Positions 2,455 to 55,580 of a stretch of DNA of 64,000 nt are shown here, in pieces (position 1 is the stretch's first letter; every line of letters begins with the position of its first letter). The translations under genes were made by a program, and so were the position numbers. The notes below the pieces were generated by a model. The model was not told the origin of the DNA, did not search any database, and was given only the letters and a program-made list of their open reading frames with translations. This DNA is from Thermoanaerobaculia bacterium (GTDB lineage: Bacteria > Acidobacteriota > Thermoanaerobaculia > UBA5066). Location: NCBI GenBank assembly GCA_963816185.1, contig CAWFJJ010000028.1, positions 128,001-192,000 on the forward strand. Direction: 5' to 3'.

Positions 2455-3651
2455 CTGATTCCGCGCGTTCTCTCCCTCGCGGCGCTCGCGGCGACGATCG
2501 CAGTCGCGCAGGGCGAGCGGACTCCTCTCACGCTCCGCGACGCCCTCGCGCGCGCTGAGGCCGCGCCCGACGTCGTCGTCGCTCGCGCGGCGCAGGCCGT
2601 CGCCGAGCGCGGAATCGACGTCGTCCGGGCGCCCGGGTCTCCGACGCTCACCGCCGGGACGCACACGGAGGCCGCGCGTCTCGCGCTCGCCCTTGCCGTC
2701 CCCGTGCGCTGGGGCAGCCAGCGGGGAACCGCCCTCGATGTCGCGCGCGCCGAGCGCGACGCGGCAACGGCCGAAACCGCCGCCGCGGTCGACCGTGCGC
2801 GAGAGGCCGTCACGGCCGCGTGGTTCCGCCTCGCGGCCGACGAGGAGCTCGAGAGCATCGCGGCGGCGCGCGTCGCACGGCTGGAGAGGACCGCCTCCGC
2901 CGTGAAGGAGCTCTTCGAGGCGGGCCGCGTTCCGCGCCTCGATGTCGTGCGCACACAGGCCGAGGCGGCGTTTGCGCGCGCCGACGTTTTCACGGCCTCG
3001 GCGGAGCGCCGCGCGGCGGCAGCGGCCCTCGCCCTGCTGGTGAGCTCGGAGCCGGGGACCGATCTTTCGGCCGCGGGCGAGCGACCCGCGCCCGCGCCTC
3101 TCCCCGGCCTCTCGTCGCTCCAGGCGCGCGCCGCGAACGCGGCCGATGTTCGGGCCGCCGACGCGCGGAGCCGGGCCGCCGCCGCCCGGATCGAGAGGGC
3201 GAAGCGGGAGGGCCTGCCCGCGCTCACGCTCGAAGGCGGAGTGGACGTGAACGACCCGACGATCGAAGGAACCGACAAGCACGTCTCTCTGGGTCTGACG
3301 ATTCCGGTCGGTGCACACGCTACGGTCGCCGTCACGAGCGCGGAGCGCGAGCGTGCCGCCGCGGAGCGGTCGCGGCTGGTCCGTTCGCTCGAGGCGGAAA
3401 TCGTCGCGGGATGGAACCGGACGGAGGCCGCCCGGCGACGGCTCGAGGCGCTCGACACGGCAACCCTTCCGGCGGCCCGGGAGGCTGCCGACCTCGCGGG
3501 TATCGCGTACCGGGAGGGCCGACTGGACCTCCTTCGGCTGCTCGAGAGCGAACGTGCCCTTCTCGAGGCGCGCGTGGGCCGCGTGGAGACATGGGTGTCC
3601 TGGGGAACGGAACGTGCGAGCCTCGAACGGCTCGTGGGAGGGAAGCTTTGA
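2455..3651 (+). CDS. TolC-family outer membrane efflux protein (start uncertain, CTG or local indel)
   Basis: Frame open upstream of the called 2704 start, giving signal-like LIPRVLSLAALAATIAVAQ then LTLRDAL; OEP repeat motifs FEAGRVPRLDV and YREGRLDLLRLL; coupled to MFP. Confidence 0.8.
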   Translation: MIPRVLSLAALAATIAVAQGERTPLTLRDALARAEAAPDVVVARAAQAVAERGIDVVRAPGSPTLTAGTHTEAARLALALAVPVRWGSQRGTALDVARAERDAATAETAAAVDRAREAVTAAWFRLAADEELESIAAARVARLERTASAVKELFEAGRVPRLDVVRTQAEAAFARADVFTASAERRAAAAALALLVSSEPGTDLSAAGERPAPAPLPGLSSLQARAANAADVRAADARSRAAAARIERAKREGLPALTLEGGVDVNDPTIEGTDKHVSLGLTIPVGAHATVAVTSAERERAAAERSRLVRSLEAEIVAGWNRTEAARRRLEALDTATLPAAREAADLAGIAYREGRLDLLRLLESERALLEARVGRVETWVSWGTERASLERLVGGKL

Positions 3652-4721
3652 GATTCCGGACGTGGGCCTCGCTCCTCGCGATCGCCGTGCTCGGGGGCTG
3701 CGGCGCCCCTGACGCCGGCGAGCCTGCCGCGCGGACTGTCAAGGTCCGCGTCGCGCAAGCGGCTCCGCACGATTTCGAGGTTCGCCTTCGGGTCGCGGGG
3801 CGCGTCGTCCCGCCCGTGGACCGACAGGCGTCCGTCTCGGCGCCGGTCGCGGGCCGCATCCAGGAGGTCACGGCCCGCGAGGGGCAGCGCGTGCGGAAGG
3901 ACGAGGTCCTTGCGCGCGTCGACGCGCGCCCCCTCGACGAGGCTGTCCGCTCCGCCGAGGCCGCGTTGAAGCGCACCGAGGCCGACGCCGCGTTCAAGCG
4001 GGACGTCGCGAAGCGGTCTCGGGACCTTTATGAGAAAGGCGTCGTCGCGCGCCAGGAGGCGGACGCGGACACCTCGGCCGCCGTCGCGGCCGAGGCCGCG
4101 GTCGTCGAGGCGACGTCGGCCCTGTCGGCCGCGCGGCGAAACCGCGAGTGGGCCGAGCTGGCGGCGCCGTTCGACGGCGTCGTGGTGCGCATCCTGCGCC
4201 ATCCCGGTGAGCAGGTGGACGGCACCGCCGCGACGCCTATCGTCGAGGTCGCCGGGCTCGACCCGCTCGAGGTCTCGCTCGACGTGCCCCCCGAGGCTCT
4301 CGCGCGCCTGCACGTCGGCGACCAGGCGGAGGTCACTGCGGGCTCCGGCGCCCCGCTCGGGGCCCGTGTCACACGGGTCGCGGGCGCGCTCGACGCGGCC
4401 TCCCTCGTCGGTGGCGTCCGCCTTCGCTTCACGGGTCCCATGCCGCCGCTGGCGCTCGGAACCCCGGTCGACGTGCGCCTCACGCTCGAGCGCCTTCCGG
4501 GTGCCGTCGCCGTTCCGAAGCGGGCCGTGCGGCGGAGCGCGGAGGGCGCACCCGAGGTCGTGGCTGTCGTCGGCGGCAGGGCGAAGGCGACGCCCGTGAC
4601 GCTCGGGCCCGAGGAAGAGGGGCTCGTCGCGGTCCGATCGGGGCTGAAGGCGGGAGATGTCGTCGTCGTCGAGGATCCCCTCGGCCTCGCGGACGGCGTC
4701 CCGCTGGAGATCGCGCGTTGA
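3648..4721 (+). CDS. RND efflux periplasmic adaptor (MFP) lipoprotein
   Basis: TTG start overlapping TolC stop; lipobox LGGC; [36 protein letters not shown] motifs. Confidence 0.9.
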
Positions 4722-32260: not shown

Positions 32261-37913
<5,653 letters not shown>

Positions 37914-47480: not shown

Positions 47481-48362
47481 TCAGTGCGCCGTCTCGCCGC
47501 CCCACTCGCGCGCGATCGCCCGATAGACGTCCTCGTCGAGCGCGTGCGCATGGGCAGGCTCGGGGAAGCGCCCTGTGCGGACGTCTTCGACGTAGGCGGC
47601 GAATGCCCGCGCCATCTCTTCGTGGAGGCTCGCATACTGCTTGACGAACTTCGGCGCGAAGCCGTCGGTCAGGCCGAGGAGGTCGTGCGTCACGAGGACC
47701 TGGCCATCGCATGCGGCGCCGGCGCCGATTCCGATCGTGGGGATCGAGAGGCGGCGCGTGATGAGGCCGGCGAGCCGGTCCGGGATCGCCTCGAGGACGA
47801 GCGCGTGACAGCCCGCATCCTCGAGGGCGTGCGCGTCCTCGACGAGGCTTCGCGCCGCGGCGGCCGACTTGCCCTGGGTCCTGAAGCCGCCGAGCTGGTT
47901 CACTTTCTGCGGCGTTAGGCCGATGTGGCCCACGACCGGGATTCCCGCGCCCACGAGCGCCCGGACCGCCGGCACGACCTCGCGACCGCCTTCCAGCTTC
48001 ACGGCGTTCATGCCGCCTTCCTTCAGGAATCGGCCCGCATTCCGCACGGCGTCGCCGACCGAGGCCTGGTACGAGAGAAACGGCATGTCGCCGACGAGAT
48101 GCGCGACCTTCGCGCCGCGCGCGACGGCTTTCGCGTGATGGAGCATCTCCTCCATCGTCACGGGCAGCGTGTTGTCGTACCCGAGGACGACCATTCCGAG
48201 CGAATCGCCCACGAGGATCGAGTCCACGCCTGCGAGGTCGAGGGCGCGGGCCGTGGGGAAGTCGTACGCGGTGAGCATCGTGATCGGCTCGCCGCGCTCC
48301 TTCTTCGCCCGGAGCGTGTGAAGAGTGATCTTTCGCTGGGGAGAGGGAGCTATCGTGGACAT
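47481..48362 (-). CDS. panB: 3-methyl-2-oxobutanoate hydroxymethyltransferase
   Basis: MLTAYD, LVGDSLG, DMPF, VKLEGG, GHIGLTPQ, GIGAG, DGQVLV. Confidence 0.96.
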   Translation of the reverse strand: MSTIAPSPQRKITLHTLRAKKERGEPITMLTAYDFPTARALDLAGVDSILVGDSLGMVVLGYDNTLPVTMEEMLHHAKAVARGAKVAHLVGDMPFLSYQASVGDAVRNAGRFLKEGGMNAVKLEGGREVVPAVRALVGAGIPVVGHIGLTPQKVNQLGGFRTQGKSAAAARSLVEDAHALEDAGCHALVLEAIPDRLAGLITRRLSIPTIGIGAGAACDGQVLVTHDLLGLTDGFAPKFVKQYASLHEEMARAFAAYVEDVRTGRFPEPAHAHALDEDVYRAIAREWGGETAH

Positions 48363-48383
48363 GGCTATCTTCTCCGTGGAAGT

Positions 48384-48448
48384 AAGACGCCTTTCGAAAA
48401 GATCTCGAGCAGCCGACGCGTCCGGGTCGCGTGACACGATCCCGGCGC
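48384..48448 (-). ncRNA. Candidate pan RNA motif-like leader upstream of panB
   Basis: Minus-strand hairpin GCG-CCGGG-(A)-UCGUG-UCA-CGCGA-CCCGG-(A)-CGC with two bulged A, then a second hairpin before the GGAG RBS. Confidence 0.45.
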
Positions 48449-48817
48449 AGAAACGATGATAGCCCCTGCACTATGCCCCGTCCACGAGCCGGGGTCGTAT
48501 TCTTCCTACGCCTGCCGGAATCGCGACCCGTCATGTCTTCTCGCCCTTCGAAGGAAGCATCATTCAAGTCATTTAGAATCAATTGTTTGAGTAAATCGCC
48601 TCCTCTGGCGATCTCTCCTTCTAAGAATCTTCCCTTCTTCCCCTCGCCTCATTAGGAAGCGAGCCACCGGTGCATGTACAGCATTCCGCTGCCCTGATGC
48701 ATCTTCGTCAGTCGATTTTTCTCTTGACATAGCTCCTTTCGTGAAACAATTCCGTCAGGTTCAGCTTGGGGTACCAGACCCGTGGTCCATGCGGGCGCGG
48801 TCCCTAGGGAGTCGTCC

Positions 48818-49444
48818 ATGGCAGCGTGGGACACGACGGAAGGCATGGGGCTGACGCCGGCTCTCGCCGGTGGTGGTTCGATGGCTGAAGCGTCGGTCCT
48901 GCGGGCCGTTCTCTCCGACGAGATTCCCGTCTCGGATGACGTCTCCTCCGAGGCCGCGGGCATCACGCCCGGCGAGTGGGACTGGACGGCGCTGAACAAC
49001 GTGCTCCGCCCGAAGCTCATCGGCCTCGCGGTGAGGAAGTACAACTTCAGCCACGAAGAGGCGGAAGACGCCGTCCAGACGGTCTACATGCGCGTTCTCG
49101 CACGCGATCCGCGCGTGAAAGACCCGATCGGCTACGTCAAGATCGCGTTCCTCAACACCTGCCTGAACATCGCGATGGCGAAAGAGCGCAGCGTCCAGCA
49201 GATGCCGGAGGAGATGGACGTGCCGGACCCGAAGTGCGAGCGCGTCACCGCGCGCCTCGAGGCCGTGCGCATGGTCAACAAGGCGATCCGCAGCGCCGGG
49301 CCGAAGTGCAAGCGCATCGTGCGGCTCTACTTCGGGCAGGAATACAGCCTGGCCGACATGACGAAGGCCACGGGCTACTCCAAGAAGACCGTCTGGAAGC
49401 GCATCTGGGGCTGCCTCGACAAGATGCGGAAGGTGCTCGCGTGA
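48818..49444 (+). CDS. ECF-type sigma-70 factor (start could be 48818 or 48881)
   Basis: Region 2 EEAEDAVQTVYMR...FLNTCLN and region 4 CKRIVRLYF..YSLADM..ATGYSKKTVWKRI..CLDKMR. Confidence 0.85.
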   Translation: MAAWDTTEGMGLTPALAGGGSMAEASVLRAVLSDEIPVSDDVSSEAAGITPGEWDWTALNNVLRPKLIGLAVRKYNFSHEEAEDAVQTVYMRVLARDPRVKDPIGYVKIAFLNTCLNIAMAKERSVQQMPEEMDVPDPKCERVTARLEAVRMVNKAIRSAGPKCKRIVRLYFGQEYSLADMTKATGYSKKTVWKRIWGCLDKMRKVLA

Positions 49445-50880
49445 GCGCAGAATTCAAGCCTGCCGCGTCTTCCTGCCCCGAGCAGTGGGAGCTTTTCGAG
49501 CTCGTGACCGAGGGCTCGACGGAGCTGAACGCGCATGTGAAAGCCCACGTCACGGCGGGCTGCCCGTCGTGCGGGAAGCACCTCGACGACATCCGCACGC
49601 TCTCGAGGGCGCGCGAGATGAAGGAAGAGTTCGACGCCTTCTTCGAAGAGCTGCCCCAGGACGACGCCCCGCCCACGGAGCGCGAGGAGTTTCTCCTCAA
49701 GTTCAAGAAGAAGAACCGCCCCGCCGACCGCCTCGGCCGCCTCGCCCACGACGGCCGCCAGCTCGCGGCCGAGATCGTGAAGGCGGTTTCGGAAGAAGGC
49801 CTCGAAAAGGCGAAAGAGCTGCTCGGGAAGATCGAAGCGGATCCGAGCCGCGGATACGCGTACCTGTACGCGTGCCAGCTGGCAATGCCGAAAACGTCCA
49901 GCAACCCGCCGATGTACGTCGAGTTTGCGAAGGCGATATCGGAAACGACCCGGAGCCTCCCGTACCTTAAGGACAAGGGACCCGCTCAGCCCGTCTGCCG
50001 CGAGCAGGTAGCCGGCGAGGCGGCGCTCTTGAAAGCAAACGCGCTGACCTACCTGGCGCTGTGCGCCGAGGCAATTGACGCAGCGCGAGAAGCTCGCCTG
50101 AGCTTTGTCGCGGCGGGTGAGGACAGTTTTGCGCTCGCCCTAGCGGACTACTTCGAGGGACTCGCGGTCACGTTCTCTGGTGATTTCGCTGTCGCGTGGC
50201 GGCTCCTGAAATCAGCTCGTTCTGAATTCAATCTTTATGGGCAAGAGAACTGGCAGGGGAGAGCTCATGCGGCGCTCGGACTCTTGGTTCTGGGCCGCGG
50301 GAAGTGCGCCTCGGCCCTACATTTCTTCGACGAGGCTCTTCGAGTACTTCACCCCGATCAGGACGGCACGGCCTACGCCGCAACTCTTGTGAATCGGGGC
50401 TATGCCTTGGTCAAGGTTGGTCGGTTGGATGCAGCGAAGGCGACGTATGCGCGCGCGCTTATGCACGCCCGTCGGTTCCAGATGAACCATCCTCTTCTCA
50501 CGATTCGCTTCGGCTTGGCCTCGATCGAACTGCTCCGGGGCAATGTCGTTCGGGCGCTCGGAGGATTCGAGAGGATGGCCCACGATGCCGCGGAGATGGG
50601 TTTCAACGAGCAAGTACTCGGCGCTCAGCTGCGGATCGCCGAGTGCTTGTCACGTCTCGGCCGTGGCGACGAAGTGGAGCGCCGCGTTCAAGAGATTCGT
50701 CAGTCCGCCTTCAAGGTTTCGCTCGAGAATGATCTGGCGTTCCGCGAGCTTTTCGAAAGCATCGATGAGGATCGAGCTTCCTCGGAGATGATCGCCTACA
50801 TCGCAGACTACTTCGAGGGCAGAAACCGCGGTGTTCGCACAGCCTACAAACCGTTCCGGCTGGTGGCGAACGGAAGTTGA
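49441..50880 (+). CDS. Zinc-finger anti-sigma-like domain fused to a soluble TPR-repeat domain (479 aa)
   Basis: GTGA overlap with sigma stop; C-x-HVTAGCPSC (HxxxxCxxC); TPR-like helices GRAHAALGLLVLGRG...FDEAL and ATLVNRGYALVKVGRLDAAKATYARAL; no TM segment. Confidence 0.8.
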   Translation: MSAEFKPAASSCPEQWELFELVTEGSTELNAHVKAHVTAGCPSCGKHLDDIRTLSRAREMKEEFDAFFEELPQDDAPPTEREEFLLKFKKKNRPADRLGRLAHDGRQLAAEIVKAVSEEGLEKAKELLGKIEADPSRGYAYLYACQLAMPKTSSNPPMYVEFAKAISETTRSLPYLKDKGPAQPVCREQVAGEAALLKANALTYLALCAEAIDAAREARLSFVAAGEDSFALALADYFEGLAVTFSGDFAVAWRLLKSARSEFNLYGQENWQGRAHAALGLLVLGRGKCASALHFFDEALRVLHPDQDGTAYAATLVNRGYALVKVGRLDAAKATYARALMHARRFQMNHPLLTIRFGLASIELLRGNVVRALGGFERMAHDAAEMGFNEQVLGAQLRIAECLSRLGRGDEVERRVQEIRQSAFKVSLENDLAFRELFESIDEDRASSEMIAYIADYFEGRNRGVRTAYKPFRLVANGS

Positions 50881-50957
50881 TCGTTCTGTAGACATCGTTC
50901 ATAGACAGGGGGCAGAGGTGCCAAGAAATCGGGTACCTCAAGAAAGTTCTTATCAGA

Positions 50958-51002
50958 AGGGGGTCAAACGTGTGCCCCCGTCTGTCCGTGTATATAGCCC
51001 AC
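50958..51002 (+). promoter_or_regulatory. Promoter-like element, copy 1 (upstream of peptide gene)
   Basis: AGGGGGTCAAA-N13-CTGTC-N7-ATAGCCCAC; 34/45 identical to copy 2. Confidence 0.55.
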
Positions 51003-51069
51003 AGCTGAACAATCGCAGCACTAACCAATTGTTGGCAACTTGGTAACCCAGGTAGGCCAGGGAGGACGT

Positions 51070-51201
51070 ATGGATTTCGACTTCGGCTTCGGTTCGTTCT
51101 TGTATTTCATTGACTGGTTTGGGTTTGGCAGCTCAGCGGAAAGCGTCTCGACGACGACTATCGGCGGTAACAAGGTCTCCACGACGACTATCGGCGGCTG
51201 A
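51070..51201 (+). CDS. 43-aa peptide MDFDFGFGSFLYFIDWFGFGSSAESVSTTTIGGNKVSTTTIGG (putative signalling or precursor peptide), absent from ORF track
   Basis: GGGAGG RBS; duplicated 24-bp unit differing only at synonymous third positions; followed by a terminator-like hairpin. Confidence 0.78.
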   Translation: MDFDFGFGSFLYFIDWFGFGSSAESVSTTTIGGNKVSTTTIGG

Positions 51202-51261
51202 CAACTAACTCCCAATAGCTGCCCAACAGGCTGGCTTGACTGGCTCTGTGTTAGGTGTGTT

Positions 51262-51283
51262 TGCGCGTGAAAACGCGTGTTTT
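51262..51283 (+). terminator. Putative intrinsic terminator after peptide gene
   Basis: TGCGCGT-GAAA-ACGCGTG stem-loop followed by TTTT. Confidence 0.55.
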
Positions 51284-51338
51284 CGTGTTCTTGGGTAAGA
51301 TTTGCATATGAATTGGGTGTCAAAAATATTTTCTTGGG

Positions 51339-51383
51339 AGGGGGTCAAAGGCGCGCCCCTGGCTGTCTCTACTAATAGCCCAC
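51339..51383 (+). promoter_or_regulatory. Promoter-like element, copy 2
   Basis: Same conserved blocks and spacing as copy 1, 381 bp downstream. Confidence 0.55.
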
Positions 51384-51484
51384 CCTTAGGGCGCCCTCAA
51401 GCAATTTCAGATCGTTAATCCAGGAAGTGAACCTCTGGCTCACCTTGGTCGGTAACGTCGGCTCTGAGGCGAGTGTGTTCGCCC

Positions 51485-51868
51485 TCACCCCGCGTACTGC
51501 GCGATGCCGTTTCCGAATGACCAGTTCTCCTTGGGGACCTCGACGAGGTTCACGAGGACGTCTTCCTTCCGCATGCCGGGGTTCTTCGCGAGGTTCTCCG
51601 CGATCCGGGCGTAGAAGGCCTTCTTCATCTCGAGGGTCCGGCCCAGGTTCAGAGTGACCTCGATGAAGACGACGTCGTCGGTGCGTTTGACGCCGAGGTA
51701 ACCGGCGTCGTAGATGAGGCCGCCGGCGGGGTGCTCTGTGATGACCTGGAAGCGGTCGTCGGCGGGGACGTTGATCGTCGCGAGCATCGCGTCGAAGACG
51801 CCGTCGGCGATGGCCTTGATGTAAGCCGGTGGCTTACCCGCGCGAAGGGAGATGTGGACGAGCGGCAT
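51485..51868 (-). CDS. Tautomerase family protein
   Basis: N-terminal Pro after Met (MPLVHISL), DDRFQVI, GRTLEMKK, ENWSFGNG. Confidence 0.9.
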   Translation of the reverse strand: MPLVHISLRAGKPPAYIKAIADGVFDAMLATINVPADDRFQVITEHPAGGLIYDAGYLGVKRTDDVVFIEVTLNLGRTLEMKKAFYARIAENLAKNPGMRKEDVLVNLVEVPKENWSFGNGIAQYAG

Positions 51869-51915
51869 GGGGCCTCCTGTGGCCCGAACGTTACCGCTCC
51901 CGGGCGCGCCGCGCC

Positions 51916-52317
51916 TCAGTCTTCTATCAACTTATGCCCCGCGAGCGTGAGCGCCGCGATCGCCTCGTTCAGGGAAGTCTTCTTGACGAGGATGTAATCC
52001 GTGTCGAACGTCGAGACCGCGAAGAGGCTGATTTTTGCATCGGCAAGCGGCTTTGCGACGGAAACGAGGACCCCTACGACATCGAGCGGGAACGGGCCGT
52101 GGAGCTTCAGGAGGGCCCAGCCGCGCGCGACCCGCAGGTCGAAGCCGTCGAGGTTCGGCGGGAGGCGCCGCTCGTCGCAGACGATCGACAGCTCGTCGGC
52201 CGTCCGGGTGATCGACGTGAACGTCTTGCCGGCCCATGTCGGAAGGGGAGCCTTCGCAGACAGGCGGCAGATGGCGTACGTGCCGGGAATCACGGAGAAG
52301 CGCTGTCCCGGTTTCAT
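51916..52317 (-). CDS. ACT domain protein (GATS/CASTOR-like)
   Basis: SITRTADELSIVC, GPFPLDVVGVL, FAVSTFDTDYILVK. Confidence 0.88.
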   Translation of the reverse strand: MKPGQRFSVIPGTYAICRLSAKAPLPTWAGKTFTSITRTADELSIVCDERRLPPNLDGFDLRVARGWALLKLHGPFPLDVVGVLVSVAKPLADAKISLFAVSTFDTDYILVKKTSLNEAIAALTLAGHKLIED

Positions 52318-52329
52318 CTCGGCAAGATC

Positions 52330-52764
52330 TCAGGGCGATGCGAAGGGGTTGCGGATGCGCAACGCTCCGAAGGCCTGCCCGGTGTTGAGGTCTTCCGACC
52401 AGATCGTCCGGCAGCCTAGCCGGCGGGCGCTCTGAAGAATGAGGGCATCCCACAGGGAAATGCGTTTGCGTCGATGCAAGTCGATGGCCGCGAGGACGTC
52501 CGCTCGAACGGGCTCGTGAAGAATCCAGTGCGAGAGGTCTTCGATGAGCGCGGCGGCTCCCGCCGCCGGCATCGGCCTCGAGACCTTGCGGGTGATCGTG
52601 ACGAAGAGCTCCTGCAAGACCTGAAGGCTGAGACAGCCGCGCCCGGAGCGCCACAGACCGGCCACGAGCTCTCGCGCCTGCGCTGCTTTCGCCCCCGCGC
52701 TTGCGTCGTACGCGTAGACCAGGACGTTCGTATCGACGAACTCCCGGGCCGGCTCAGCGCTCAT
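52330..52764 (-). CDS. PIN-domain toxin (VapC-like)
   Basis: FVDTNVLVY, QVLQEL, SLWDALI, WSEDL. Confidence 0.9.
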   Translation of the reverse strand: MSAEPAREFVDTNVLVYAYDASAGAKAAQARELVAGLWRSGRGCLSLQVLQELFVTITRKVSRPMPAAGAAALIEDLSHWILHEPVRADVLAAIDLHRRKRISLWDALILQSARRLGCRTIWSEDLNTGQAFGALRIRNPFASP

Positions 52765-53002
52765 GGAGCGAGTCGCGGGTCCACATGGCCTGACCCCGGG
52801 TTCCCAGATTCACGGGGCGTGTGAGCCGCGCGAGCGCCCGCTCGCGAGCCGCGGCGTAAGCGTCCTCGCGCTCGACGATGTCTTCCAGCATGCCAGCGAG
52901 AAGCGCCGAGACGGAGGTCTGCCGTTCGACGGCGAGGATCTTCACCTTTCTCAGCACGGGCTTTGGAAGCGCGAGCGTGATGTTCTGAATGACCGCCTTC
53001 AC
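52754..53002 (-). CDS. CopG/RHH-type antitoxin (VapB-like)
   Basis: NITLALP..VLRKVKILA..TSVSALL; WTRDSLHER; overlaps toxin start. Confidence 0.8.
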   Translation of the reverse strand: MKAVIQNITLALPKPVLRKVKILAVERQTSVSALLAGMLEDIVEREDAYAAARERALARLTRPVNLGTRGQAMWTRDSLHER

Positions 53003-53032
53003 GCGAAAGAGTGTATCACGCGTTCACGTGAA
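52998..53032. promoter_or_regulatory. Putative toxin-antitoxin autoregulatory operator
   Basis: TTCACGCGAA (52998) and palindrome TTCACGTGAA (53023) at the antitoxin start. Confidence 0.4.
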
Positions 53033-53067
53033 ACGGATCGAGTAACCCGCTGGAGTGACGAAGGTCG

Positions 53068-53754
53068 TCATCCCCCGGACGCGGGCTCGGCCGGGCGGGG
53101 GCCCATGTGGTGCTTGATCATCTCGCCCTCGGCGATGTAGATCGCTTCCTCGCCGATGTTCGTCGCGAGGTCGCCGACGCGCTCGAGGTTCTTCGAGACG
53201 CTCATGATCTCGATCGAAGCGCTGATGAGCGCCGGGTTCTCGACCATGTACGTCAGGAGCTCGCGGATGATGGACTTGTTCTTCTCGTCGAGGATGTCGT
53301 CGCGCTTGCAGACTTCGAGAGCGAGCGCGCTGTCCTTCCGGATGAAGGCATCCAGCGACTCCTTCAGCATGCCCCGCGCGATCTCGGCCATGTGGGGGAT
53401 GTCGATCCACGGCTTGAACGGGCGAAAGCGCGACAGCCGCTCGGCGCCCTCGGCGATGTTCACGGCGTGATCGCCGATGCGCTCGAGGTCGGCGTTGATC
53501 TTGAGGGCCGAGACGAGCAGGCGGAGGTCCCCGGCGACGGGCTGCTGCAACGCGAGGAGGTCGATCGCGTCCTCGTCGTTCTTGATCTCCATCTGGTCGA
53601 TCACCTTGTCGCGCTCGATGACTTTCCGCGCCTTCGCGGCGTCGGCCTCGACGAGCGCCTCGACCGCGAGGCGGATCTGGTTCTCGACTTCCGCGCCCAT
53701 GCCGATGAGCTGCCGGCGCAGGTTCTCGAGCTTCTCGCCGAAATGTTCTTTCAT
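53068..53754 (-). CDS. phoU: Phosphate signalling protein PhoU
   Basis: QQPVAGDLR, DLERIGDHAVNIAE, LERVGDLATNIGE. Confidence 0.96.
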   Translation of the reverse strand: MKEHFGEKLENLRRQLIGMGAEVENQIRLAVEALVEADAAKARKVIERDKVIDQMEIKNDEDAIDLLALQQPVAGDLRLLVSALKINADLERIGDHAVNIAEGAERLSRFRPFKPWIDIPHMAEIARGMLKESLDAFIRKDSALALEVCKRDDILDEKNKSIIRELLTYMVENPALISASIEIMSVSKNLERVGDLATNIGEEAIYIAEGEMIKHHMGPRPAEPASGG

Positions 53755-55580
53755 GAGGTCTCCTTCGTGCGTTCGAGGGCCACGTCCCGCGGGACCGCCG
53801 CCGGCAGCGTGACGGTGAAGCGGCTGCCCTTGCCGGATTCCGAGTCCACGCGGATCGTGCCCCCGTGGAGGATGAGGAGGTGCTTCACGATGGCGAGCCC
53901 GAGGCCCGTGCCCGGGATCGACTTCGCGCGCGACGGGTCGACGCGGTAGAAGCGCTGGAAGATGCGGTCCTGCTGCGAGCGCGGGATGCCGATGCCGCGA
54001 TCGACGACGTGGACGACCACAGGGGACGCGGCGGCCGGGCCGCCCGGCGGTCCCCCCTCCGCGAGGACGTCCACCCGCTGGCCGGAGGGGGAGAACTTGA
54101 CGGCGTTGTCGACGAGGTTGCGGAACACCTGGGAGAGGCGGCGGCGGTCCCCGACGATCTCGAGATTCTCGCCTGCCTCGACCGCGACCGTCACGCCCCG
54201 CGCCTCGGAAACCGGGGCGAGGTCTCGCACCACGGAGGCGAGGAGCGGCAGCAGCGAGATGCGTTCGAGAGAGAGCGTCACGGCGCCGGACTCGATCTGC
54301 GAGAGGTCGGTGAGATCCGAGACGAGCGCCTCCATCTCCGACGATTGCCGCTCGAGAATGCCGATGAGCCGCGCGAGATCGGGAGGGAGGTCGTTCTCGC
54401 CGGCGAGCGTCTCGACGGCCGCGCGGATCGCCGCGACCGGGGTCCGGAGCTCGTGGGAGACGTCCGAGACGAAGCGCCGCCGCATCGTCTCCGTGCGCTC
54501 GCGTTCGGTCGCGTCCCGAACGACCCCCACCGCGGCGGGCTCGCCGGCCCCGCCACCGTGCGGGACGGCGCGGACGTTGATCTCGAGGACCTGCTCGGGT
54601 GCGGTCTCCCCGCCGAGGCGCAGGACGGCCGTCTCGTCGGTCGAGCCCTCGCCCTGGACGCGGGCCGCGAAGAGGCGGAGCGTTTCCGGGTCGCGCACGA
54701 GGTCTACGAGCGCGCGCCGCGGCGCGCCCGCGGGCGCGCGAAGCAGGGTGAGCACGGCCGGGTTCGCGTCGAGGAGCGCGAGGGTCCGATCCACCACGAG
54801 GAGGCCGACGGGGACCTGCTCGAAGACGGTCCGCGCGAGGAGGCGCGCTTTTTCGCTACCCTCGCGCTCGGCCGCGACGAGGCGCGCGAAGCGGGCGAGC
54901 GCGACGAAGACCTCCTGCGTCTCCTCCGAGCCGCTCGCGGGCGGGTGGGGATGGCGGCCGGCCGCGGCCTCGGCGACGCCCGCATTCACGCGCTCGAGGT
55001 CGCGCGCGTGCCGGTGCCGGATGAACGTGACGAGGACGGCGACGATGAGCCCGGCGAGAACGGAGACCTGCAGGAGCGTCCGCCGGAACGGCGCCTCGAG
55101 CGCGTCGAGGTCGTTCTGGCTCATCGCGAGGCGGACGTAGCCGATCGGGCTCGCCTCCTCCCCTACGCGGCGCGCGACGTAAACGAACGGGTCGTGAACC
55201 GTCGCGGACGTGCGCGCGCCGAAGCCCACGAGGCCGTGGCGCGCCGCGAGGACCTCCGGACGCGACGCGTGGTTCTCGACGCGCTCGAGCCGATCGGGAG
55301 GGACCTCGCTGTCGGCGATCACGGTCCCGTCCGCTTCGATGAGCGTGAGGCGCGCGCCGGCCTGCCGCGCCGCGAGGCCGACGCGGTCCTGCGCGGCGGT
55401 CCGCGTCTTCAGGTCGGCCTCGAACTCGGGCGCGACGCGCTCGAGCATGAGGACGAGGTCGCGCCGGCTGTGCTCTCGCACGGCGCCGTCGAGGACGCGC
55501 CCGAGCGCGATCGCGAAGGCGACGCCGAGAACGAGGCCGGCGAGCGCGGGCAGGGCCGCGCGGCGGAGGAGGGGAGTCAT
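53751..55580 (-). CDS. phoR: Phosphate regulon sensor histidine kinase
   Basis: Two TM, ENHASRPEV, PAS, FVSDVSHELRTP, NLVDNAVKF, FQRFYRVD, GTGLGLAIVKH. Confidence 0.9.
   Translation of the reverse strand: MTPLLRRAALPALAGLVLGVAFAIALGRVLDGAVREHSRRDLVLMLERVAPEFEADLKTRTAAQDRVGLAARQAGARLTLIEADGTVIADSEVPPDRLERVENHASRPEVLAARHGLVGFGARTSATVHDPFVYVARRVGEEASPIGYVRLAMSQNDLDALEAPFRRTLLQVSVLAGLIVAVLVTFIRHRHARDLERVNAGVAEAAAGRHPHPPASGSEETQEVFVALARFARLVAAEREGSEKARLLARTVFEQVPVGLLVVDRTLALLDANPAVLTLLRAPAGAPRRALVDLVRDPETLRLFAARVQGEGSTDETAVLRLGGETAPEQVLEINVRAVPHGGGAGEPAAVGVVRDATERERTETMRRRFVSDVSHELRTPVAAIRAAVETLAGENDLPPDLARLIGILERQSSEMEALVSDLTDLSQIESGAVTLSLERISLLPLLASVVRDLAPVSEARGVTVAVEAGENLEIVGDRRRLSQVFRNLVDNAVKFSPSGQRVDVLAEGGPPGGPAAASPVVVHVVDRGIGIPRSQQDRIFQRFYRVDPSRAKSIPGTGLGLAIVKHLLILHGGTIRVDSESGKGSRFTVTLPAAVPRDVALERTKETS

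Follow-up and report, generated by a model that had tools for sequence, protein, structure and literature searches.

A short peptide gene adjoining an ECF-type sigma factor and a TPR protein suggests a peptide signaling circuit in soil Acidobacteriota

The sigma factor, TPR protein, and peptide genes

The analyzed window is a stretch of 64,000 nucleotides (contig CAWFJJ010000028.1, positions 128,001 to 192,000, forward strand) from a Thermoanaerobaculia bacterium (assembly GCA_963816185.1), and the gene in question is an unannotated open reading frame (ORF) located at 51070..51201 (+). The genome carrying the window is referred to as G000, and other G-numbers denote related genomes. The ORF starts with ATG at 51070, 190 nt beyond the stop codon of a gene for a tetratricopeptide repeat (TPR) protein, ends with TGA at 51199–51201, and encodes a 43-aa (amino acid) peptide, MDFDFGFGSFLYFIDWFGFGSSAESVSTTTIGGNKVSTTTIGG. 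The start codon is preceded by a Shine-Dalgarno (SD) sequence, GGGAGG, at 51060..51065 (+), with the ATG 4 nt further on. The leader (residues 1–22, 51070..51135 (+)) is aromatic and acidic and contains FGFGS twice. It is followed by two copies of the core VSTTTIGG (51145..51168 (+) and 51175..51198 (+)), the second of which abuts the stop codon. A terminator-like hairpin with a T-run was found at 51262..51289 (+), and its equivalent was kept 3′ of the orthologous ORFs.

The core copies form a 23-nt DNA repeat (96% identity) with two differences, TCG/TCC and GGT/GGC, both synonymous, and the two FGFGS copies use different codons. Both observations had been made in an earlier note on this stretch and were verified on the DNA. 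That note had also argued that the N-terminus is not a Sec signal, with which the sequence agrees, as the N-terminus lacks basic residues. It is hydrophobic and aromatic. Within G000, the VSTTTIGG core was confined to this one ORF. The peptide had no family matches in Pfam, a search of 50700–51700 against Rfam returned no matches at E up to 1, and the fold of the 3′ untranslated region (UTR) was not more stable than that of shuffled sequences (z 0.16).

Two genes precede the peptide gene on the same strand. A gene for a divergent sigma factor of the extracytoplasmic function (ECF) type is found at 48782..49444 (+), given as the longest ORF from GTG 48782; its start is uncertain, ATG 48818 and ATG 48881 being the alternatives. 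The product matched the NCBIfam model TIGR02937 (sigma70-ECF) over residues 84–218 (profile positions 18–164 of 165; E 5.3e-11) with 42.4 bits, slightly under the cut-off of 42.9, and Pfam Sigma70_r2 weakly, at a sub-threshold level (E 0.0014). The sequence search of the sigma factor against the Protein Data Bank (PDB) gave no matches. The gene at 49441..50880 (+) encodes a 480-aa protein with a Cys/His (ZAS-like) region and TPRs, a candidate for both anti-sigma factor and peptide receptor. With its GTG start, the gene overlaps the stop codon of the sigma factor gene by 4 nt (GTGA, 49441–49444), and the same gene order was repeated in the paralogous systems described below.

The TPR protein matched Pfam TPR_12, and a helix-turn-helix (HTH) domain was absent in the Pfam and NCBIfam scans. 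It is predicted to be soluble, with no transmembrane segment and a maximum 19-residue hydropathy of 1.35. Across 19 orthologues (the window protein and 18 others), H37, C42, and C45 were invariant, giving the motif H-x4-C-x2-C; the canonical H-x3-C-x2-C was present in the paralogue on contig C5 and in distant homologues. The AlphaFold 2 (AF2) model had a mean pLDDT of 80.4, with low values over residues 1–100 and values exceeding 90 over most of the repeats, and was composed of all-helical repeats from approximately residue 100. In Foldseek, the best matches of the model were LGN/Pins TPR domains (E 2e-6), which hold extended peptides, followed by the Rap-Phr pheromone complexes 8rst, 4gyo, and 6t46 (E 7e-5 to 3e-4, TM-score by target 0.62–0.66). 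As TPR superhelices are generic, these matches of a predicted model indicate fold likeness and are not proof of kinship. The phmmer search of the protein against PDB chains (E up to 1) yielded two chance-level matches and no RRNPP proteins.

Orthologous loci and translation of the ORF

Orthologues of the TPR protein were found in all 28 same-genus genomes (57–90% identity). The order 3′ of the TPR gene was kept in the orthologues: a near-invariant promoter box came first, then the SD and the small ORF, and finally a conserved 3′ UTR with the terminator, with the SD at a fixed 53–57 nt from the box. An ORF followed the box at 27 of the 28 first-box loci, the exception being a contig end, as well as in 24 of the 27 metagenome stretches bearing the box. 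The earlier note had proposed the search for an equivalent ORF at orthologous loci as the test by which the gene could be refuted; the ORF was found there, and the gene survived. When the peptide was used as a query against 60 related genomes, matches were obtained only in G003 (E 1.5e-5), G017 (7e-4), and G005 (0.036), all at the orthologous locus and mainly through the leader. The leader was the sole part detectable by sequence in relatives (65% identity across residues 2–27 in G003; also in G017), and the metagenome variants had leaders similar to that of the window peptide.

Genus and metagenome loci pooled together gave 42 distinct peptides of 10–47 aa, and the core pattern of the family is x-x-P-I-x-G at the extreme C-terminus. 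The terminus P-[I/V]-x-G was present in 31 of them, and six more had P-I near the end (37/42 in total). Thr or Ser replaced Pro in two, the window peptide and its nearest relative, G005, and three looked broken, one being truncated and two having frameshift-like tails. Leaders were kept within subclades and cores differed among nearly all species, which bears out the leader-plus-core logic of the earlier note. Long peptide forms had Gly-rich leader ends, and many short relatives contained Cys pairs.

Codon usage was consistent with selection on the protein. The invariant Pro was encoded by CCC (13), CCT (9), CCG (6), and CCA (3), the third position having a diversity of 0.72 and positions 1–2 a diversity of 0, and the second base was kept at the hydrophobic positions of the leader. 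Variable columns in tandem cores were counted by eye (G001, 4; G014, 7; G002, 4; system 2 of G000, 2; the window peptide, 2), and all 19 were third-position and synonymous. The repeats of G001, G014, and system 2, which account for 13 of the 19 columns, have a 21-nt period without spacer, so the repeat boundary was not chosen. As two synonymous changes are weak evidence alone, the case for the window gene rests on this cross-genome comparison. The earlier suggestion of conservation at the protein level thus held: orthologous ORFs keep their position and design and carry a codon-level signature of selection. Judged from these sequences, selection acts on the protein level of the ORF, and the 43 codons very probably are a real, unannotated, fast-evolving gene tied to the sigma factor/TPR module.

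Promoter boxes

An ECF-type-like promoter box of 44 nt (box 1) is located at 50959..51002 (+) and consists of GGGTCAAA, approximately 13 nt, CTGTC, and then TATATAGCCCAC. With up to three mismatches, box 1 was found in 26 of the 175 genomes of the order, namely G000 and 25 of the 28 same-genus genomes, and in none of the 146 others; a reversed-pattern control gave no matches. In G000, the core box motif matched four sites (reversed control, 0): the peptide gene, box 2, the peptide gene of one paralogue, and one other site. For each paralogue group, a separate conserved box with this geometry was found. By its sequence, the promoter of the peptide gene appears to be of the type used by ECF sigma factors. 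No element resembling box 1 was seen by eye upstream of the sigma factor gene, and autoregulation of the operon is therefore not claimed.

Box 2 (51340..51383 (+)) is found 381 nt past box 1, the repeat comprising 60 nt at 70% identity, and 27 related loci, 20 of them distinct in sequence, likewise had a box 2 after box 1. Downstream of it, at 51384..51482 (+), lies an ORF-less unit of approximately 100 nt, which is similar to the 3′ UTR that follows the peptide ORF. The part downstream of box 2 was well conserved in one subclade, and in the window the unit runs into the 3′ end of a convergent tautomerase gene. The unit is possibly a small RNA dependent on the sigma factor or a second cassette that has decayed, and it may be the output RNA of the system.

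Paralogous triads and homologues across the class

Two further triads of sigma factor, TPR protein, and peptide genes were found in G000. Their peptides end in PIG or PIGG, one having three ASVGPIG cores, and the orthologues of these triads in other species of the genus had matching peptides, some of them with two to three tandem cores.

The TPR-protein profile detected full-length relatives in 82 of the 301 genomes of the class. By family, matches were obtained in 29/31 genomes of f1, 20/39 of f2, 3/4 of f3, and 29/72 of f5, and in 0/154 genomes of 17 other families; outside the class, the matches were limited to generic TPR similarity in long proteins. These tallies, like that of the same-genus orthologues, include the unpublished genomes G037 and G042, and no claim depends on either. 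Among the first 19 loci outside the genus, ten had an SD-preceded small ORF 3′ of the TPR gene with a Pro-containing end motif, three of these ORFs being 10 codons long. Of a further 20 class-wide loci, 14 had a small ORF 3′ of the TPR gene whose C-terminus was of this type, several with two to three tandem cores. Six of these 14 ORFs encode 57–99 aa and have, by inspection, Sec-like signals (basic N-terminus, hydrophobic stretch, and Ala-x-Ala-type site), and others encode hydrophobic peptides of 21–27 aa. Sec-like signals were also present in the pro-peptides of G053, G047, and G510. A tight C-terminal motif, fixed after the data had been seen, occurred in 14 of the 20 downstream-sense regions versus 1, 0, and 0 of 20 in the controls. 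A loose motif (Pro at −3 or −4) occurred at 15 of the 20 loci versus 11, 4, and 8 of 20 in the controls, i.e., it did not discriminate in these GC-rich genomes. The triad is linked in a fixed manner in all three paralogous systems and in four families of the class.

The peptide ORFs at the family f2 loci L069, L085, L086, L065, and L067 have only 10 or 19 codons, strong SD sequences, GTG starts, and no leader. They are preceded by a conserved palindrome in the 5′ UTR, GGCGG ... GAGCGCTC ... CCGCC, which recurs before the group-3 peptides of the genus.

Some additional genes were observed at these loci. In system 2 of G000 (G000:C25:547000-553500 (−), 1281–2660), genes for a 136-aa hypothetical protein and a 302-aa protein are located 3′ of the peptide gene on the same strand, and they are possibly output genes of that system. 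A short ORF at the system-2 locus of G028 ends in a similar C-terminus (by eye). The 302-aa protein has, judged from its sequence, the look of a di-iron (ferritin-like) enzyme. In the third triad (G000:C5:34500-41000 (−), approximately 2777–4208 in the locus), the TPR gene is broken into two reading frames, owing to either a frameshift or an error of assembly, the sigma factor gene and the gene for a 37-aa peptide are intact, and a histidine-kinase-like gene follows the peptide gene. At L070 (G036:C160), a 39-aa ORF ending in VPIGG is found on the minus strand near 564, opposite to the TPR homologue, and may belong to a neighboring system.

Proposed circuit and alternative explanations

The locus is most readily interpreted, on balance, as a module of an ECF-type sigma factor, a soluble TPR-superhelix anti-sigma factor, and a separately transcribed small peptide gene. 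We lean towards the gene encoding a pro-peptide, the C-terminal core of which would be the ligand of the TPR anti-sigma factor and would close an autoinducing loop. That the peptide is a TPR ligand in some feedback loop is probable, and that it serves as a cell-to-cell signal is a more tentative proposal. The logic suggests, by analogy, that of RRNPP/SHP systems with a sigma/anti-sigma output. The anti-sigma factor would grip the sigma factor through its N-terminal Cys/His domain. The core (here T-T-T-I-G-G within VSTTTIGG, present twice) would be freed from the aromatic/acidic leader, most likely exit the cell and re-enter it, and bind the TPR groove, altering how tightly the sigma factor is held. 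Free sigma factor would then transcribe the peptide gene and the second box-driven unit, resulting in a self-amplifying, strain-specific signal. As the peptide gene itself is box-driven, the circuit would be autoinducing. The reading of the box by the sigma factor, the binding of the peptide to the TPR protein, its processing, export, and import, and the sign of the response are what we infer. Given the relatives of the Sec type, the peptides of the family may be argued to be exported pro-peptides with a C-terminal active part, and the window peptide would count among the leaderless, short-hydrophobic ones, with two cores.

Covariation of receptor and peptide is consistent with this proposal. 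The mean pairwise identity among the 19 orthologues was 75–79% for residues 12–195 and 48–56% for residues 301–450. The distance between peptide tails tracked that between TPR regions with the N-terminal part regressed out (partial Mantel r 0.33, p 0.002, 18 taxa), in a test that removes shared ancestry only in part.

More broadly, and still tentatively, the loci may represent a large undescribed pheromone family of Acidobacteriota. Its pro-peptides, of Sec-type, short hydrophobic, or multi-core form, might be matured to C-terminal oligopeptides of the Pro-x-Gly type that act as species "pherotypes", with up to three insulated channels per genome. If true, RRNPP-like quorum-sensing logic would have been found for the first time beyond Gram-positive bacteria and their phages.

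Several observations weigh against the exported-ligand circuit. The window peptide lacks a Sec signal, and no exporter, protease, or permease was found beside any locus examined. Its core has Thr at the site where 37 of the 42 peptides have Pro, and at 15 of the 39 loci outside the genus no candidate peptide was present. The box is limited to the four sites in G000, so a physiological output is not visible. The sub-threshold score of the sigma factor, the departure of the metal motif of the window protein from the canonical spacing, the share of common ancestry left in the Mantel test, the late fixing of the tight motif, and the lack of discrimination by the loose one belong here as well. The leaderless 10- and 19-aa ORFs of f2 are easier to reconcile with an intracellular ligand than with export.

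An intracellular ligand is the alternative most directly raised by these points. The peptide would stay inside the cell, be induced by the sigma factor, and exert positive or negative feedback on the anti-sigma factor, and its diversification would insulate the three paralogous systems from one another. The missing signal peptide, the f2 ORFs with their strong SD sites, the lack of a nearby transporter, and the orthogonality required by three paralogous triads in one genome are all in line with such a role. It is nevertheless considered unlikely: Sec-like signals are carried by the pro-peptides of at least nine relatives, conserved leaders and repeated identical cores imply cleavage, and strong between-species diversification at one orthologous locus is a pherotype pattern. 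Somewhat less probable still is that the peptide is the output of the sigma factor and not its input, e.g., a membrane-active or antagonistic effector, and that the TPR protein senses something else. Apart from the peptide gene and box 2, the box has no clear targets; the peptide is hydrophobic and aromatic at its N-terminus; and antagonistic peptides are typically hypervariable too. However, the conserved part is a short C-terminal motif repeated in units of 6–9 aa, as in a ligand, no immunity or export gene is linked to the locus, the peptide tail covaries with the TPR region, and the TPR fold resembles those of peptide binders.

The earlier note had read the ORF as a processed signal peptide or as a multi-core precursor of a ribosomally synthesized and post-translationally modified peptide (RiPP), with modifying enzymes encoded elsewhere in the genome. 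Its leader-core and multi-core parts stood, tandem cores having recurred in several lineages and in a paralogous system; its RiPP part did not, and the link to the sigma/anti-sigma pair and the promoter box had been overlooked. The leader/core layout, the Ser/Thr-rich core, and the Cys pairs of many short relatives speak for a RiPP, but neither Cys nor Ser/Thr is conserved family-wide, only the P-[I/V]-x-G end being so, and no Pfam precursor family was matched. Pfam assigned the seven window neighbors scanned to sigma, TPR, tautomerase, ACT, PIN, ribbon-helix-helix (RHH) antitoxin, and PhoU families, with no tailoring enzyme or leader-recognition protein among them. At more than 60 related loci, surveyed by ORF lists and six-frame scans with most neighbors not Pfam-scanned, the only constant partners were the sigma factor and the TPR protein. 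Since a tailoring enzyme was absent at every locus examined, the RiPP reading is unsupported and regarded as improbable. Hardly credible is an untranslated ORF with a small RNA as the conserved unit, for which the ORF-less box-2 unit and the conserved 3′ UTR could be cited: the spacing between the box and the SD and ATG is fixed, length variants of 19–47 aa keep an open frame, and variation is synonymous only, both in the codons of the invariant Pro, Ile, and Gly residues and inside the repeated cores.

Comparison with known systems

The proposed circuit shares several traits with RRNPP systems (Rap-Phr, NprR-NprX, PlcR-PapR, PrgX, Rgg-SHP, and ComR-ComS, as well as AimR-AimP of phages), in which a cytoplasmic TPR-type receptor adjoins a pro-peptide gene, as here. 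The active part would be the C-terminal end of the pro-peptide, which is how Phr, PapR, and SHP work; the cores are hypervariable among relatives, forms with a Sec signal and short hydrophobic forms both occur, and the top structural matches include Rap-pheromone complexes. The layout of receptor, peptide, and short non-coding unit resembles aimR-aimP-aimX. On the other hand, the output here is a Cys/His anti-sigma domain with an ECF-type sigma factor and not an HTH or Rap-type binder, sequence homology to the receptors was not found (phmmer against PDB chains, E up to 1), the leader of the window peptide is acidic and not basic, and the host belongs to Acidobacteriota, a diderm phylum. In its proposed logic the circuit is RRNPP-like, but it departs from these systems in two traits that define them, namely the output domain and homology at the sequence level. 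SHP3 is described as a 23-aa peptide, the active part of which is its last eight residues, ending in G-G (PMC3150281). The available part of the RRNPP_detector paper assigns such systems to Firmicutes and the mobile elements of this group, and TPR-sensed peptide pheromones are regarded as a Gram-positive trait. The present locus suggests that soil Acidobacteriota have a peptide signaling circuit resembling those reported, up to now, mainly from Gram-positive bacteria.

Known ECF/ZAS pairs (RsrA-SigR, ChrR-RpoE, and RshA-SigH) are similar in that the gene of the ECF-type sigma factor adjoins and overlaps that of a soluble protein with an N-terminal His/Cys cluster. They differ in that the known ZAS anti-sigma factors sense redox or singlet-oxygen stress, whereas in the present case sensing would fall to a TPR domain of approximately 370 aa that has a dedicated peptide gene. 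In the review PMC8999054, group ECF270 of Casas-Pastor et al. (2021) is given with a ZAS-type soluble anti-sigma factor, a mechanism listed as unknown, and an example from Acidobacteria. The literature covered contained no description of a peptide gene that accompanies a TPR anti-sigma factor, supplementary tables such as those on the ECF group contexts of Casas-Pastor et al. being outside reach. Multi-core RiPPs and double-glycine peptides resemble the present peptides in having a leader, repeated cores, and, in long forms, Gly-rich post-leader junctions. They differ in that no tailoring enzyme or C39 exporter was found at the loci examined and no ABC exporter in the window neighborhood, and in that Gly-Gly here closes the product at its extreme C-terminus instead of marking the junction of leader and core.

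Should the peptide prove to be the ligand, both a ligand and a mechanism would be supplied for that sigma factor group, along with a communication system in an abundant, poorly cultured soil phylum and small orthogonal peptide-sigma-promoter sets, three of them in this genome. Genes of 10–50 codons that are missed by annotation are recoverable through synteny with the receptor.

Neighboring genes in the window

Over the sigma factor-TPR-peptide locus and its neighbors (48200–53800), the GC content drops from approximately 70–74% to 52–66%; as the locus is syntenic across the genus, it is not an obvious recent island despite this drop. The genes 5′ of the sigma factor gene resemble pantothenate and CoA genes, judged from their translations. 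Two genes for Opp/Dpp-type solute-binding proteins (Pfam SBP_bac_5) are located at approximately 32510–35117 (−), about 16 kb from the peptide locus, and with these the import of peptides is feasible, though the genes are unlinked to the locus. The genes 3′ of the locus are on the opposite strand and encode, according to Pfam, a tautomerase, an ACT-domain protein, a PIN/RHH pair, and PhoU. In the pair, at 52330–53002 (−), a gene for a PIN-domain (VapC-like) protein overlaps one for an RHH antitoxin-like protein, forming a toxin-antitoxin pair, and the PhoU gene is found past it at 53068–53754.

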